The notes under the pieces: model-generated | Told to the model about the DNA's origin: nothing | Seen by the model: only the letters and a program-made list of their open reading frames with translations | Database searches by the model: none | Translations under genes and position numbers: made by a program | Part shown: positions 57,248 through 64,000 of the stretch, one piece after another | Position numbering within the stretch: position 1 is the stretch's first letter | Layout: each line of letters opens with the position of its first letter | Source of the DNA: a virus | Lineage: Duplodnaviria; Caudoviricetes | Strand: one strand, 5' to 3' | IMG/VR virus record: IMGVR_UViG_3300033068_001704 | Location: 158,155-222,154 of that record | Length of the DNA stretch: 64,000 nt

Positions 57248-57510
57248 TCGACTTCGAAGCCCGGGTGAAGGCGCTCCGAGAGGCCATCGGACCCACCTCG
57301 ACGACCGACGGGGAAGTCCTTCTCGCAGCGCTCCAAGACGTTGCCCTCGCCGCCGGTGCGGCGGAACGGGAGGCGTGTGCAGCGCTCTGCGCCCAGGTGC
57401 GCTGTCGCAATTGGGACTCGAAGGAGTGCGCTTCGCAGATCCGCAGGCGGCCCGAGACGGACCCGGCAACGGTGACCGGCGTCGGGTTCAAAACGGACGT
57501 GAGGGGGTAA
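57244..57510 (+). CDS. Hypothetical protein
   Basis: AAEREACAALC...ECASQIR phage motif. Confidence 0.6.
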   Translation: MIDFEARVKALREAIGPTSTTDGEVLLAALQDVALAAGAAEREACAALCAQVRCRNWDSKECASQIRRRPETDPATVTGVGFKTDVRG

Positions 57511-57532
57511 GAGACCAGCCCCCATCCGTTAC
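57503..57532 (+). promoter_or_regulatory. Phage promoter-like motif copy (GGGGGTAA-N16-CGTTAC)
   Basis: Immediately before the helicase fusion gene. Confidence 0.7.
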
Positions 57533-57554
57533 TAGATGGGGGCTGGAGACCGTG

Positions 57555-60161
57555 GTGAAGAAGAGCGAAAATACTCTCAGCGTTCGAGGTTTCCAGGGCA
57601 ATCTGGGGAAACACGACGCGTACCGGAAGAACATCGAGATCTTCCAGCGGGAGTCCGGACAGAAGAAGCTTCGCCCCGACCAGCAGTATTGGACCCTTGT
57701 CCTCAACAAGAGCGACGAGGCCACCATCATGAGCCGAGATCTCGGGGTTTCTCCGAGTCAGTTCCATGGTGTGAATCGGGACCCTGAGGTGTACGAGAAG
57801 TGCCTCGCCGAGTACCCCGGGGCCAACCTGTATCTCGGGGATTGGTGTGATGTTCTCGACCAACAGGAAATCTGCCCGAACGGGGGTCTGATCTACATCG
57901 ACTCCACAAGCGAGTTCGATCGCGAGAACGGACACCCGATCGCTTCTGCCATGGTGACGAAGGCCCTCAACCGTGCGGGGGTTGGGACGCTTGTCTGTAT
58001 GAACATGTGTGCCGAGAACCTTCGGCACCCGTCCGCCGAGATCTCCGAGAAGACGTTCGCCGAGCGTCTGCGGAGACAGACCGACAACCCTCAGATGGTG
58101 TCGTACATCGACCGCTACGAACCGCAAAAGAGCTACACCACTCAGATGAGGTGTTTGTACTTCTGGAAGGAAGTACGCGTCAAGTGTGCATCGAGCATGG
58201 TGTACACGTCCAACTCCCCGCCTCCCCCTGCGGACCAGCCTCGTTCGGACGACAAGACCGTCCTGTATCCGTGGCAGAGCGGTTTCGCGAAGGGGATCGT
58301 ATCTTCGTGGAGATCGCGAGTGATCGCGCCCACTGGATCCGGCAAGACGACGCTCATGAAAGCGGCGGGGCAGCTTGCCAACAACGAGGGCAAGCGGGTC
58401 CTGTTCGTGGTCCCTCAGAGGCACATCGGCCTGGCCTTCATTCAGAGGGCGGATCTCATCATCGACGACATGGGGCTCTCTTGCCCTCGCATCGAGCCCA
58501 ACAACGTCTACCTCGACAGCAAGAACGAGTCGTATGGGCGAGATGGGTTCGCCAACGGGCTGTTCACGTGGCTTCAGTCCGCGAAGGCTTCGAATGGGAA
58601 AGGCTCGGCAATCACGTCGATGCACACCCTCGTCCGAGTCGCTGAGCGGGTGAAGGAAGCGGGTCTCAACATCGATGACCTTCTGATCTTCCAGGACGAG
58701 GCTCACCACATCTCCAACGTCTCCATCTCGGCAAGCGATGAGGATTGCACTGAGGAGGAGATCGCTCTGGAGCAGGAGACTGGGACAAAGCTGGGGGCCT
58801 TCTACGAGTACGTCCTGAACCGCACGAAGGCAGGGGTCTGCATCGTCTCCGCCACCCATTTCCGCGGGGACAAGGTCCCGATGTTCCTGGACGATGCGGC
58901 CTACGCACTCCAGAAGTTCGAGCTTCCGTTCCTGGATCATTGGAAGTGGCTCGGGTTCAAGTCGTTCAACTACGACTTCATCGGGTACGACGGGACCTAC
59001 TCCATCGAGACCCTGATCCAGACGATCCGATTCGAGCGTGGCGAGAAGCACATCGTGTGCGTTCCTGGGGACGGTCGGAGGTTTCGCTCCGACCCTGCAT
59101 GGGTCACCCGCCTCTTCACTGCGCTTCGCGCTGAGTTCGGCGAAGATCGAGTGCTCGATCTCGTCACGCCGGGTGGGGTCAGAGACCGAAACAAGATCTC
59201 GATGTTCGAGGACAACGATCTGTTCAAGAAGGGAGAGGAAAGCCGCTTCGATGTCATCGTGGCCTGCAACCTGATGCGCGAAGGCACGGACTGGGGTCCG
59301 GCGACGCGCATCCATGACATGGCCCCCTCGGCAAGCTTGACCAGGACGGTCCAGACGATCGGGAGGCTTCTCCGCAAGGACCGGCATGGGAGGAAGGTGA
59401 CCGTCGCCTACCGTCCGTACTTCAAGAATCTCGACAAGAGAGCGGGTGAGGAGGAGATCCGCGCCCTCACTGCGGACCATGCGAACGTATCTCTCGCGAC
59501 ACTGACCCTGTCCGAAACTCTCTTCGATCCCCCGGATGCTGTCCCTTCTCCGTCGGGAGGTTCGAGCGAACCGAGAGAGACCCTGACGGATCGCCTTGAA
59601 CGTGTGTTCGGGGACCGAAAAGAAGCGGTCCTGAACAGGCTCGTCGCTTCCCTGAACCCGGCCATCAACCCGGCCCGGGGGGATCAGGAGGACAGGGTGA
59701 TCTGGGCACTCCAATCGACGTCCTACAAGGAATTCCTCCAAGATGAATCCCTGAAGGGGCAGGCGCTTTCCGCGCTGAAGGCATTCGCGAACCACCACCT
59801 CCGCAGCGAACATGCGGGGGCAGGGATCGAGATCACCCCTCCCCTGCGTGTCCTCGGAATGAACCCGGAACAGATCCGAGAGGCTGGGTTCGACAAGACC
59901 GTCCGTGGAGATGAGTTCTCGTTCGAGACGAACATGGACACGGAGCAGTTCGAGGAGCTTCAGAAGGTCCTGCGGAAGATCGCTGCCCCTCGCGGGAGCG
60001 ACAAACGGGACAAGGCTGACGCGACCGACCTGAAGCACAACTCGAACAAGAAGAAGGCCCGAAGGGTGAAGACCCTCCTCAAGAAGGGGAAGCTTCTCGG
60101 CCACTCCTCCATCCACTCGACGGAACAGGCCTCGGCGCATGAGAAAGAAAATTTCGACTGA
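57555..60161 (+). CDS. SF2 (DEAH, restriction-type) helicase fused to an N-terminal Rossmann/MTase-like domain
   Basis: LYPWQ, APTGSGKT, QDEAHH, VSAT, LMREGTDW, QTIGRLLR; N-terminal FHGVNRD...LYLGD...LIYIDS. Start inferred from the GGAG RBS and promoter motif. Confidence 0.8.
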   Translation: MKKSENTLSVRGFQGNLGKHDAYRKNIEIFQRESGQKKLRPDQQYWTLVLNKSDEATIMSRDLGVSPSQFHGVNRDPEVYEKCLAEYPGANLYLGDWCDVLDQQEICPNGGLIYIDSTSEFDRENGHPIASAMVTKALNRAGVGTLVCMNMCAENLRHPSAEISEKTFAERLRRQTDNPQMVSYIDRYEPQKSYTTQMRCLYFWKEVRVKCASSMVYTSNSPPPPADQPRSDDKTVLYPWQSGFAKGIVSSWRSRVIAPTGSGKTTLMKAAGQLANNEGKRVLFVVPQRHIGLAFIQRADLIIDDMGLSCPRIEPNNVYLDSKNESYGRDGFANGLFTWLQSAKASNGKGSAITSMHTLVRVAERVKEAGLNIDDLLIFQDEAHHISNVSISASDEDCTEEEIALEQETGTKLGAFYEYVLNRTKAGVCIVSATHFRGDKVPMFLDDAAYALQKFELPFLDHWKWLGFKSFNYDFIGYDGTYSIETLIQTIRFERGEKHIVCVPGDGRRFRSDPAWVTRLFTALRAEFGEDRVLDLVTPGGVRDRNKISMFEDNDLFKKGEESRFDVIVACNLMREGTDWGPATRIHDMAPSASLTRTVQTIGRLLRKDRHGRKVTVAYRPYFKNLDKRAGEEEIRALTADHANVSLATLTLSETLFDPPDAVPSPSGGSSEPRETLTDRLERVFGDRKEAVLNRLVASLNPAINPARGDQEDRVIWALQSTSYKEFLQDESLKGQALSALKAFANHHLRSEHAGAGIEITPPLRVLGMNPEQIREAGFDKTVRGDEFSFETNMDTEQFEELQKVLRKIAAPRGSDKRDKADATDLKHNSNKKKARRVKTLLKKGKLLGHSSIHSTEQASAHEKENFD

Positions 60162-60210: not shown

Positions 60211-62100
60211 ATGAAGACCAAGACCAAGACGGCCACCAAGACGGCCACCAAGACCCACATCGACCTCGTTCTTCGTGCCCGTCTCGCGGAGCGCGGTTCG
60301 GCAGGTTCGGCCGTTCGTCGCGAGGCCCGGATCGTCATCTTCGGGGCGGACCAGCAGACCCCGCACCCGGACTCGGAGAAGATCGTCGAGGACGATCTCC
60401 GAGGCACCCACGAATACTACAACCGCCTCGTTCGGGCGGTGTCCCCGAAGTACAAGAAGGCACGGGGACTCGTCGTCGGTCCGGAGGCGCGCAAGCAGGA
60501 GCTTCGGGAGAAGCAGATCTCTGCCCTGTATCAGGAGCGTCACGACTGCGCGAAGTCGGAGGAGGCTCGGATCAACGAGGAGATCCTGAAGCTGAAGCAG
60601 GAACGCCGAGAGTCCTGGGCGCTCGTGGACAAGGAGCGGACGGCCCTCCGGAAGAAGAACGCGGAGAAGATCCAGGACCTCATCGGACCTTCGACGATCA
60701 CGCCCCTGATCAAGGCGGAACGCAACCGCGTCTCCGTCTACGGGAAGACCCGCCAGAGCAGCGACCCGACGATCGGTTGGGGCAACTACACGCTTGCGGA
60801 GAAGGACTTCGGTCTCGCGACCCGCAAGGCGTTCAATCTCAAGAGCATCCCCCACTTTCGTGGTGAGGACCGTGATGGGACCGCCCCCGAGGACTTCCGG
60901 GCGTACAAGTTCTGGCAGAAGGACGGGACGCTTCGCTCCGACTTCACGCAGAAGAACCACCACGCACATCGCACGCCCGAGGCGATCTTCGGTGGGAAGG
61001 GGAAGCTGATGACAATCCGCCCCTTCGAGGAGTCAGACCTGGCTGCCTTCAACCTCCCTGCCGCGTTCTGGGACCAGATCGCTCGGCATCGCAGCGAGGG
61101 AAAGCCCGACCGGTGGTACGTCATCCTCATCGTCCGGAACGGGACCAAGGTCCCCGATGCGGACTGGTACGGGGTCGTCGCCAACTTCCCCGCTGGGTCG
61201 AAGCAGACCCCGAGCCTCTTGGATCGACTGCGATCGGTCGATCACGTCACGGAAGCTCGGATCGTGAGGAAGAAGCAGGGCCTTCGACTGGAGACCCACG
61301 TCAACCTCCACGTCAAGATCGCGGTGGCTGCCAAGGTCGCACGAGAGACGGTCGAGGTGAGCTGGGGCTCGTTCACGAACAAGGGGGTCGGGAAGCTTCT
61401 CGTCACGTACCCCGATGGTCGAGTGGACGAGTTCTCCGAGGCGAACGTCCCCGCGCTGCTTCGCTGCCGTCAGCACGAGGAGACGAGCAGGAAGCTCCAC
61501 GAGTCCCTCTCCAAGCATGAGAAGGATGCTCGGAAGGCCTTCAAGACGCTGAACCTCGACCCCTCGATCATCTGGGATCGGGAGGAGTTCCCCCGGAGTC
61601 CCGGATCGATCCGCCACGTGTATCGGCGACTGTTCCGAGACGAGATGGTCGAGGCGCTGGGGGGAGAGGCTGCCCGCGAGAAGCGCGATGAGATCATGCG
61701 CCTGTGCCTCAAGCTCTACCGTCAGCCCGGACCGGATGGTGAGAAGAACCCCTACGGGGGAGACCCGGACCAGGCACGGGAGATCGTCGCCATGCGGATG
61801 GCAGAGATCTTCCCGATCTCCGAAGACAAGGCCGCCGCGATGGCAGTGGTGTTCGTCTTCATGGAGCGGTTCAACCACCTCGCCGACTGGGCGCACCGGT
61901 CCGGCTTCCGGTACCACACGTCTCGACGCGAGTTCTACCGCACGTTCGCGGCGGAGCTGTGCCAGAAGTACAACGTCACGTACCTTCGTCCGCCCAAGGC
62001 AGGTCGTAAGGTCTCGGGAGACCGGAGCGTGGTCGCCCCGTTCGTCCTGGAGACGATCCTCAAGACCGCGGCGCTGAAGATGGGACGCGCGTGGGAGTGA
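60211..62100 (+). CDS. Type V CRISPR effector, Cas12m-like, predicted nuclease-dead and C-terminally truncated
   Basis: Abuts the CRISPR leader. Cas12m-like segments: IFG...LRGTHEYYNRLV, coiled coil, IGWGNYT, FW..DGTL, HLADW...RREFYRTFAAEL...Y, RSVVAPFVL..IL..AA.K.G. No RuvC D/E/D triad or zinc finger recognisable. Confidence 0.7.
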   Translation: MKTKTKTATKTATKTHIDLVLRARLAERGSAGSAVRREARIVIFGADQQTPHPDSEKIVEDDLRGTHEYYNRLVRAVSPKYKKARGLVVGPEARKQELREKQISALYQERHDCAKSEEARINEEILKLKQERRESWALVDKERTALRKKNAEKIQDLIGPSTITPLIKAERNRVSVYGKTRQSSDPTIGWGNYTLAEKDFGLATRKAFNLKSIPHFRGEDRDGTAPEDFRAYKFWQKDGTLRSDFTQKNHHAHRTPEAIFGGKGKLMTIRPFEESDLAAFNLPAAFWDQIARHRSEGKPDRWYVILIVRNGTKVPDADWYGVVANFPAGSKQTPSLLDRLRSVDHVTEARIVRKKQGLRLETHVNLHVKIAVAAKVARETVEVSWGSFTNKGVGKLLVTYPDGRVDEFSEANVPALLRCRQHEETSRKLHESLSKHEKDARKAFKTLNLDPSIIWDREEFPRSPGSIRHVYRRLFRDEMVEALGGEAAREKRDEIMRLCLKLYRQPGPDGEKNPYGGDPDQAREIVAMRMAEIFPISEDKAAAMAVVFVFMERFNHLADWAHRSGFRYHTSRREFYRTFAAELCQKYNVTYLRPPKAGRKVSGDRSVVAPFVLETILKTAALKMGRAWE

Positions 62101-62286
62101 GGTAGGTGCGAGAGGGTCGGTGGCCCTCAAAACCCTGGACCCGCTCGAACTCCAGTAAATCCAGGTATTTGCCTGGCTTTGACAACTGAATAAGTGCCTT
62201 AGAACCCACTATGAAAAGTGGGTCTCTTGGGGCCTCTCGCAAACCAGACTGTAACTAGTCGAATTTGCTAGGGTCCCAAGGGACCC
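62101..62286 (+). promoter_or_regulatory. CRISPR leader
   Basis: Non-coding, AT-richer, TTGACA at 62179, TGCGAGAGG/CCTCTCGCA inverted pair, adjacent to repeat 1. Confidence 0.8.
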
Positions 62287-64000
62287 TCTCCAGAGCCTCC
62301 CGATCGGCTTCGTAGATCAGACATGCCGGTTACGATTCTCGACCCTGTAACCACAGACGATGTCTCCAGAGCCTCCCGATCGGCTTCGTAGATCAGACAG
62401 GCGCCCCCCGAGAGCGTCGGGAACAACGTGCTCGGTCTCCAGAGCCTCCCGATCGGCTTCGTAGATCAGACGTAGGGATCCACTTCCCCCCTGCGAGCAT
62501 CAGCTCAAGAGCTTCCAGAGCCTCCCGATCGGCTTCGTAGATCAGACAGGAGTCGGCACTGCTGGAGTTCGACCGTGATCGCCGTGCTTCCAGAGCCTTC
62601 CGATCGGCTTCGTAGATCAGACAACCTCGTGCCGGACGACCTCTCGAACACGACGAGCGTCGCTTCCAGAGCCTCCCGATCGGCTTCGTAGATCAGACAA
62701 CTGGCGGAACACGGATGACCGGCGTGAACACCAGCGCTGCTTCCAGAGCCTCCCGATCGGCTTCGTAGATCAGACTCGTCGTGTACGTGGCAGTGCCCGA
62801 GCACGCCCCGGTACTTCCAGAGCCTCCCGATCGGCTTCGTAGATCAGACTTCAGAGAAGCGGACTCGGCAGGCGCTGCGATCTCCATCTTCCAGAGCCTC
62901 CCGATCGGCTTCGTAGATCAGACTTCAGCATCGCAGCGCCCTTCACGGAGTAGGTGGGGTGACTTCCAGAGCCTCCCGATCGGCTTCATAGGTCGGACAG
63001 TCAGTCCACGGTGAGCGGTCGCGCTCCCCGCGTGATCTTCCAGAGCCCCCTGATCGGCTTCGTAGATCAGACCTCGTAGCGGTCGCGGAGAGAGACCACC
63101 GCGCCCTCCTTCCAAAGCCTCCCGATCGGCTTCGTAGATCAGACGAGAGCCTAGACTCGTTCCTGAAGCGTTGGACCGCTTCCAGAGCCTCCCGATCGGC
63201 TTCGTAGATCAGACGGCAGGTAGCCCTTGGGCAGAGGGTTCTGCGGGATGACGCTTCCAGAGCCTCCTGTTCGGCTTCGTAGATCAGAATACACGCGAGA
63301 GCTTCTCGACTCCATGCCTCCGTGGTTGACTTCCAGAGCCTCCTGATCGGCTTCGTAGGTCAGACGGCAAGCTCTACTTCACCATCCTCGACTTCCGGGA
63401 GGCGACTTCCAGAGCCTTCTGATCGGTTCGGTGCTGGGACTGAAAAGACCCAAAGCCCCCCGATCGGCCTCGTAGATCGGACCAGGCGAGGCCAGAGCAC
63501 GTCTCGGAACGATGCCCCCCTCCAAAGCCCCCTGATCGGCCTCGTAGATCGGACAACCTGCACACCAAGCCTCCCGATTGGCTTCGTAGATCGGATGGCG
63601 GTGGATCGCGAACGGCAACCACCTGCGGATCACGTCACTCTTCGAGCCTCCCGATTGGCTTCGTAGATCGGACTGCCCCGACCAGCGCAAAGTAGAGCCT
63701 CCCGATCGGCTTCGTAGATCAGACCTGACGCAGAAATGGCCGGTAGCTCGGTGTCCGACTCCCCATAGCCTCCTGAATGGCTTCGTAATTCAGACTGGAT
63801 CTATCGCCACTGGGCCTCCCGATTGGCTTCGTAGATCGGACCATGCTCGCGCAGCGTAGCCACGAGGCCGGTGACCTTGAGCCAGGACTTCACTTCACTC
63901 ATCGACACCCGGTTACTGCCTTCCAGAGCCTCCCGATCGGCTTCGTAGATCAGACAGCTCCTGCCAGCCTTCGATCACGACGAAGAGCAGCCCGTCTTCC
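62287..64000 (+). CRISPR. CRISPR array, 36-nt repeat CTTCCAGAGCCTCCCGATCGGCTTCGTAGATCAGAC, at least 24 repeats plus the start of another; continues past the window end
   Basis: Repeats start at 62287, 62363, 62436, 62512, 62587, 62663, 62740, 62814, 62888, 62963, 63037, 63109, 63179, 63254, 63330, 63406 (truncated), 63447 and 63519; degenerate copies run to 63841; intact repeat at 63920; partial at 63996. Unique spacers are mostly 34-41 nt. Confidence 0.98.

Follow-up and report, generated by a model that had tools for sequence, protein, structure and literature searches.

What would a phage gain from carrying spacers that read as fragments of a bacterial restriction enzyme? The question is raised by the last 64,000 nucleotides (hereafter the window) of the virus record IMGVR_UViG_3300033068_001704, i.e. 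positions 158,155 to 222,154, where a CRISPR array follows a gene for a Cas12-like effector. A first-pass annotation of this DNA had suggested that two spacers are directed against hsdR, the gene of a host type I restriction subunit, and that the phage uses a non-cutting Cas12 to silence it without destroying the host chromosome. Here, we examine the array, the effector and its neighbor, the putative targets and their genomic context, and consider which mode of action they are compatible with.

Organization of the array

The record comprises 222,154 bp with 63% GC, encodes 38 tRNAs and a tmRNA, and is about 50% complete; the window forms its end. The array (62287-64000, + strand) is composed of a 36-nt repeat and about 21 spacers of 34-41 nt, and is interrupted by the end of the contig. 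The repeat contains a 6-bp stem with a 9-nt loop directly before the terminal AC. This hairpin is no more stable than those of shuffled sequences; its position within the repeat is the same in the repeats of homologous loci, and this conservation sets the orientation of the array, with transcription on the + strand from the effector side. The segment between the effector and the first repeat (62101-62286, + strand) is the presumed leader on the basis of its position. Neither a sigma-70 promoter nor a clear terminator was found near the module, and a search of IMG/VR with the array repeat returned no match.

Decay of the repeats sets in past 63400. In the decayed part, a 78-nt gap between repeats (63842-63919) probably corresponds to two spacers fused through the loss of a repeat, and very short inter-repeat intervals of 6-15 nt are also present. 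Degenerate repeat copies, with spacers of 17-22 nt, are likewise found at the end of a 22,832-bp contig (record 7 of run X1, depth 11.7, absent from G000), which is probably the continuation of the array and of the genome past the window. No cas1 or cas4 gene was found in the assembled half of the phage (the record being 50% complete), and therefore the spacers probably derive from the host machinery. Comparison of the spacers with G000 revealed no full self-target. The 18 PAM-distal bases of s4 (62548-62586) match G000:202737-202754, in the antisense direction, within a gene for a probable virion protein of 1,140 aa; the seed half of s4 does not match there, and s4 is possibly a spacer against a related phage.

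A Cas12m-derived effector predicted to bind without cutting

The gene at 60211-62100 (+ strand) encodes a protein of 629 aa, which structure, profile and alignment together predict to be a nuclease-dead, C-terminally truncated relative of Cas12m. It has no match in Pfam or NCBIfam, and we found 15 relatives. The best Foldseek match of its model is the Cas12m structure 8pm4 (E 8.7e-15), the profile of its family retrieves the Cas12m entry 23vw (E 1e-34), and the top four structure matches are all Cas12m (Z 16.9, rmsd 9.4, 459 aligned residues), with the REC1/REC2 coiled coil and the WED domain of the Cas12m fold. The model stops at Cas12m2 residue 538, and the protein ends ahead of the HCCC zinc finger (549-572) and of Asp579 described for Cas12m2 (PMC10442227). 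At the RuvC-I and RuvC-II positions no acidic residue is conserved, and neither a catalytic triad nor a cysteine cluster is conserved among the 16 homologues.

Since the effector possesses neither the RuvC catalytic residues nor the zinc finger, it is expected to bind DNA without cutting. Model and alignment strongly indicate an RNA-guided, Cas12m-derived DNA-binding protein unable to cut, so that the non-cutting Cas12 proposed at first pass is upheld as a prediction and assigned to a defined family. With respect to the features by which Cas12m is recognized, the RuvC triad and the zinc finger are absent from the effector, and the adjoining array with its 36-nt hairpin repeat is of the Cas12m kind; we regard the system as a type V-M variant that lies outside the RuvC and zinc-finger definition, yet should act like Cas12m.

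Two spacers match the same hsdR genes

Spacer s15, the 15th from the leader (63366-63405, + strand), corresponds to a conserved stretch of EcoAI-family hsdR just after helicase motif VI, and s12, the 12th (63145-63178, + strand), to the EcoEI_R_C region of these genes, both in the sense strand. An exact 29-mer of s15 is found in five GTDB genomes, every time within a gene for a type I HsdR of ~800 aa and in the sense strand; the overall identity in these five genes is 36-37/40, with 37/40 in three Polyangiales hsdR genes. The best match of s12 lies in the same hsdR genes, in frame and 350-435 nt downstream of the s15 site. In four of the five GTDB genes with the 29-mer, the best local match of s12 falls in frame at a distance of ~340-400 nt downstream, with the highest identity in the two Polyangiales (28/34 and 26/34). 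Over the Polyangiales as a whole, s12 reaches 28/34 in L005/L047 (a Sandaracinaceae MAG) and 26/34 in four others. Within a single hsdR gene of 2.4 kb the best values are 37/40 for s15 and 28/34 for s12, and the pairing of the two spacers recurs in the wider Polyangiales hsdR set. The HsdR of L005 clearly qualifies as an EcoAI/FtnUII-family protein (1196 bits against the subunit R model NCBIfam NF046051, cut-off 550), and hsdM follows hsdR in all 15 Polyangiales loci whose context was read.

In a chance test, 1,500 decoy sequences drawn from the phage genome were compared with 22 hsdR genes of Polyangiales, and none reached 28/34 (s12) or 37/40 (s15), the decoy maxima being 26/34 and 29/40, and those of shuffled sequences 24 (s12) and 26 (s15). 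When an HsdR profile was compared with 431 spacer translations, the peptides of our two spacers were the only ones selected (with E values of 8.5e-4 and 2.4). For the match to hsdR, s15 is decisive by itself; the significance of s12 depends on the prior choice of the hsdR set through s15 and does not extend to whole genomes, about one 28/34 match being estimated to occur by chance over 400 genomes. The chance that both matches fall in hsdR, and not in hsdM or hsdS, is about 0.2 from length alone. These results bear out most of what the first-pass annotation had read from the spacers: both are genuine members of the array, their in-frame translations are as claimed, they match the same EcoAI/FtnUII-family genes in the two HsdR regions it had named, just after motif VI and in the C-terminal part, and they do so in the coding sense; the resemblance is also recovered by the HsdR profile.

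Neither exact nor degenerate searches of GTDB, JGI metagenomes and the probable source run recovered the exact protospacers of s12 and s15, and therefore we infer the host hsdR copy, its context and its PAM from the homologous genes. Among the contigs listed for run X1, which show presence, not absence, none besides the phage's own matched s12 or s15. No better match to s12 was found in 401 Myxococcota genomes; a search for its PAM plus seed gave two matches outside hsdR, of 22/34 overall, which we take to be due to chance. No spacer matched hsdM, hsdS or 267 kb of hsdR neighborhoods (integrase, primase and IS91 genes included).

The spacers that match hsdR are 2 of about 21, and both, at positions 12 and 15, are old. 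The repeat before s15 retains the 6-bp stem, and the crRNA handles of both spacers are intact. As for the other spacers, INPHARED phages yielded no match, and their matches to 401 Polyangia genomes are at chance level, none of them convincing. The in-frame peptide of s14 (63290-63329) is, in our opinion, reminiscent of the large subunits of phage terminases. About 95 spacers from six homologous arrays gave no match to this HsdR/HsdM/HsdS family, the sole restriction-modification family compared; therefore, anti-restriction targeting is at most a candidate trait of the effector family. The largest homologous array had no match in plasmids.

PAM and guide pairing

Spacer s7 (62776-62813, + strand) is the only spacer for which the probable source run yielded a protospacer. 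It matches 34/39 positions on a 20,871-bp contig (record 3 of run X1, absent from G000), with TTC directly 5' of the match, in agreement with the TTN PAM of GoCas12m (PMC11013384). The contig has a depth of 12.6, compared to 11.8 for the phage itself, and may represent either the half of the phage that is missing from the record or a relative present alongside it. Spacer s7 seems to run antisense to a reading frame with, presumably, an amidase-like motif; the peptide has no match in Pfam.

At the hsdR sites, the preceding codon (for Phe or Tyr) is TTC or TAC in 21 of the 29 genes for s15 and in all 17 genes that match s12 over at least 20 bases, and TTC precedes both sites in three loci (L050, L053 and L057). 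These codons are fixed by the protein sequence, so that the pattern agrees with a shared PAM at the hsdR sites and does not prove one. In 3 of the 29 Polyangiales hsdR genes (L051, L053 and L054), TTC is accompanied by a perfect match of the 20 PAM-proximal bases of s15; as Cas12m2 pairs only 17 bp of its guide (PMC10442227), s15 would be a perfect guide, with a PAM, on these three genes. The seed of s12 matches at most 15 of 17 bases in known hsdR genes. The idea that both spacers hit one hsdR gene behind a shared 5' PAM is supported as to the gene family and the codon class (TTC or TAC) before both sites; the exact protospacers were not recovered.

The orientation of the spacers had also been put forward as favoring repression by a dead Cas12. 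A PAM facing the promoter is indeed the effective orientation for repression by TldR, dCas9 and dCas12 (PMC10705468). However, GoCas12m confers protection with guides on either strand (PMC11013384) and s7 is apparently antisense, so that the strand does not help to tell the possibilities apart.

The helicase and methyltransferase-fold partner

The gene at 57375-60161 (+ strand; true start probably near 57500-57560) encodes a fusion of a SAM-methyltransferase-fold domain with an SF2 helicase, a partner that was missed at first pass and that may change the mechanism. The domain of ~200 aa (approximately 57558-58200) adopts a Rossmann methyltransferase fold, with Z of 13-14 to several methyltransferases over model residues 6-206; for the methyltransferase 3c0k, Z is 14.0 with an rmsd of 3.6 over 172 aligned residues. 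It has no sequence match in Pfam or the PDB. A glycine-rich SAM-binding loop is not evident, and hence the domain may be inactive. The SF2 helicase motifs are all intact and invariant. No nuclease domain was recognized in the partner protein, and models of Cas3 score far below the cut-off against the helicase, the match being confined to the surroundings of Walker A.

Of the homologous loci, several lie on viral contigs of 135-360 kb and most have arrays. Wherever the DNA ahead of the effector is available, in 11 loci, the helicase gene immediately precedes that of the effector, and 10 of the 11 also have the small gene. The two parts are separate genes in most homologous loci, and fused in the phage studied here and in L006. 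Some of the related loci show peculiarities of their own. L090, whose main array (L090:11300-14731) has over 40 spacers and would lend itself well to statistics on PAMs and targets, contains a second array of five repeats between the methyltransferase-like and helicase genes (L090:6730-7040). In L037 the array (L037:8389-9961) shows strong degeneration, some spacers being irregular or duplicated, and the helicase gene is split in two.

The host and the genomic context of hsdR

The best joint matches of s12 and s15 are in Polyangiales (myxobacteria), and the host of the phage is probably a myxobacterium. This agrees with the suggestion that the protospacers could point to the host. The phage also encodes a di-haem cytochrome c-like protein (L092:3183-4727; G000:103182-104729), a host-type gene whose nearest clusters are commonest in Myxococcota. 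Searches with the cytochrome and the tmRNA in Polyangiales gave weak matches only, and confidence in the host assignment therefore stays moderate.

The EcoAI/FtnUII-family hsdR is found in 36 of the 401 Polyangiales genomes searched (the tally includes the unpublished genome G643, left out of the chance and PAM statistics), and also on plasmids. We read the context of 15 Polyangiales loci up to 20 kb, some on short contigs, and between two and four of these have a mobile appearance. An element inserted at tRNA-Ser in L086 (L086:5850-19928), with an integrase, a Prim-Pol and hsdRMS as cargo, looks like a satellite-type defence island; in L085, the neighbors of hsdRMS are an integrase and an IS91 transposase. 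Two further hsdR loci lie near tRNA-Ser or tmRNA. With the queries used, 11 of the 15 loci gave no sign of an integrase, a tRNA or a tmRNA in the vicinity of hsdRMS, some contigs being short. In several loci hsdM starts ~20-30 nt after hsdR, and therefore a roadblock in hsdR could be polar on the methylase.

Possible mode of action

We propose RNA-guided repression of a host-resident restriction gene as the best reading of the locus, with a probability of roughly 0.55. According to this scenario, crRNAs from s12 and s15 would lead the effector to two TTC-flanked coding-strand sites in a host-resident hsdR of the EcoAI family, the family being given by the matches, and the particular copy and the PAM at its s12 and s15 sites being extrapolated. 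The bound complex would halt transcription elongation, with the PAM facing the oncoming polymerase, and the co-encoded SF2 motor would probably assist the block, in analogy to Cas12m and CasDinG. The synthesis of HsdR would stop and the chromosome would remain unharmed. HsdR already present would leave the first incoming genome unprotected, and because it acts at entry, any gain would have to come in replication or in a long infection: it is plausible that newly replicated, unmethylated phage DNA, or long-lived infections, would be protected. HsdR of type IB is turned over by ClpXP. The host methylase would continue to mark the progeny if hsdMS has its own promoter; in E. coli, hsdMS has a separate one. 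Other elements would also be targeted by the same array. Precedents for the RNA-guided repression of host genes by phages are provided by TldR (PMC10705468) and by an inferred dCas14 (PMC7162821).

It is tempting to go further and to consider the nuclease-dead Cas12m, the SF2 translocase and the methyltransferase-fold protein as a three-part phage system, in which the adaptive array would serve as a programmable anti-defence device, restriction would be shut off actively by the motor or by methylation instead of by a passive roadblock, and one guide on a conserved hsdR motif would cover several host species. We regard this extended version as a long shot. A related possibility, which we find very improbable, is that the target is right and the simple roadblock is wrong: the effector would recruit the partner to mark, unwind or clear a long stretch of DNA, or to pass it to a host nuclease. 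The placement of the partner genes ahead of the effector in every homologous locus that extends that far, their fusion here and in L006, the invariant SF2 motifs, the SAM-methyltransferase fold of the small domain and the existence of Cas12m-Cas3 hybrids (PMC10910872) agree with recruitment; on the other hand, no nuclease domain is recognized in the partner, and the domain that would do the marking may be inactive, given that its glycine-rich loop is not evident.

The spacers themselves could have another origin. They may stem from a competing mobile element, be it a satellite, an integrative element, a plasmid or a prophage, with hsdRMS among its cargo. The system would then be a weapon between elements of the usual V-M kind, and hsdR would be struck simply for belonging to the element; V-M systems show an enrichment on plasmids and serve in competition among elements (PMC11656645). 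The elements in L086 and L085, the two loci near tRNA-Ser or tmRNA, the patchy presence of the hsdR family (36/401, plus plasmids) and the phage-like depth of the contig targeted by s7 speak for such an origin. Nonetheless, a non-cutting binder interferes only via essential genes (PMC11013384), and hsdR is not essential, which weakens this explanation; moreover, among the flanking genes compared, including the integrase and the primase, there is none with a match to a spacer, and silencing of an island-borne hsdR would be anti-restriction all the same. We consider it unlikely, if far from negligible. Alternatively, Cas1-Cas2 of the host, acting in trans, could have inserted chromosomal fragments by accident, the second being taken from close to the first through a priming-like clustering. 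These could have been kept because the effector is harmless, with no selected role in anti-defence. The lack of cas1 and cas4 in the assembled half of the phage, the spacing of ~400 nt on the same strand, the absence of the pattern from homologous arrays, and the fact that s12 and s15 are old, mismatched to all known genes and located where the decay of repeats begins, would all fit an accident. Random uptake from the chromosome should also strike conserved housekeeping genes, however, and 401 Polyangia genomes yielded no other convincing match: the sole chromosomal-type gene matched is that of an anti-phage nuclease, and the crRNA handles of both spacers are intact. We consider such an accident rather improbable, and it stays among the alternatives since the spacers are old, few, and without an echo in the ~95 spacers of homologous arrays.

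Relationship to known systems

Among phage CRISPR systems directed against an anti-phage function resident in the host, the complete class 1 system (type I-F) of phage ICP1 reportedly cleaves the satellite PLE (Seed et al. 2013, cited in PMC7162821), whereas the phage studied here would silence a gene by means of one dead effector. The closest relatives of the module are the type V-M systems (MmCas12m2, 8hhl/8hio; GoCas12m, 8pm4; PMC10442227, PMC11013384), with which it shares the fold, the 36-nt repeat, no adaptation genes seen, and cleavage that is not expected; a TT-type 5' PAM may be a further common trait, given TTC at one protospacer and TTC or TAC at the hsdR sites. It differs from them in that the RuvC-I/II acidic positions are not conserved and the zinc finger and RuvC-III are absent, as well as in its fixed helicase and methyltransferase-fold partners, its occurrence in jumbo phages and its two spacers on a bacterial defence gene. 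A Cas12m beside an SF2 helicase is also found in the Cas12m-Cas3 hybrid (PMC10910872), in which, however, the helicase is a Cas3 with an HD nuclease; the N-terminal part of our partner protein folds like a methyltransferase, and no nuclease is recognized in it. For the pairing with a helicase, this hybrid and the helicase-linked type I-C variant mentioned below are the closest cases in print. MvCas12m of the myxophage MV-1 (bioRxiv 10.64898/2026.09.14.751636) is another Cas12m with an array, and without adaptation genes, on a myxobacterial phage; it keeps D305/E463/D555, no targets were found for it, and a helicase partner is not described.

With TldR of fliC-carrying prophages (PMC10705468), the module has in common that it is phage-borne, belongs to the nuclease-dead TnpB/Cas12 family, lacks a C-terminal zinc finger and represses (here as a prediction) a host gene under the guidance of RNA. 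TldR is derived from TnpB, and uses one fixed, omega-RNA-like guide to target a promoter and remodel flagella, whereas our module is derived from Cas12m, has a multi-spacer adaptive array, and would target the coding region of a restriction subunit. The CRISPR systems of huge phages (PMC7162821), among them an inferred dCas14 against glycyl-tRNA synthetase and a helicase-linked variant of type I-C, resemble it in the jumbo phage, the lack of Cas1/Cas2 and a catalytically deficient effector on a host gene; their effector is different, and the targets named are genes of transcription and translation, not of restriction-modification.

Conclusions

Phage-encoded dead effectors that repress host genes (demonstrated for TldR, deduced for dCas14) and a phage CRISPR system against a host defence element (that of ICP1) are already known. 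In an incomplete search of the literature, we came across no description of hsdR-directed spacers in phage CRISPR arrays or of the silencing of restriction by them, and we found no three-part, helicase-linked dead-Cas12m module in print. To our knowledge, the known anti-restriction strategies of phages are protein inhibitors, modification of DNA and avoidance of sites. Spacer s15 is a natural guide with a perfect seed and a TTC PAM in three Polyangiales hsdR genes, which makes the claim directly testable, and the finding suggests that this uncultured jumbo phage infects myxobacteria. If our reading is true, these spacers provide the first concrete targets and PAM for the helicase-linked dead-Cas12m module of jumbo phages, and RNA-guided repression of a restriction gene would constitute an adaptive route of anti-restriction, one that could be rewritten for each new host defence.
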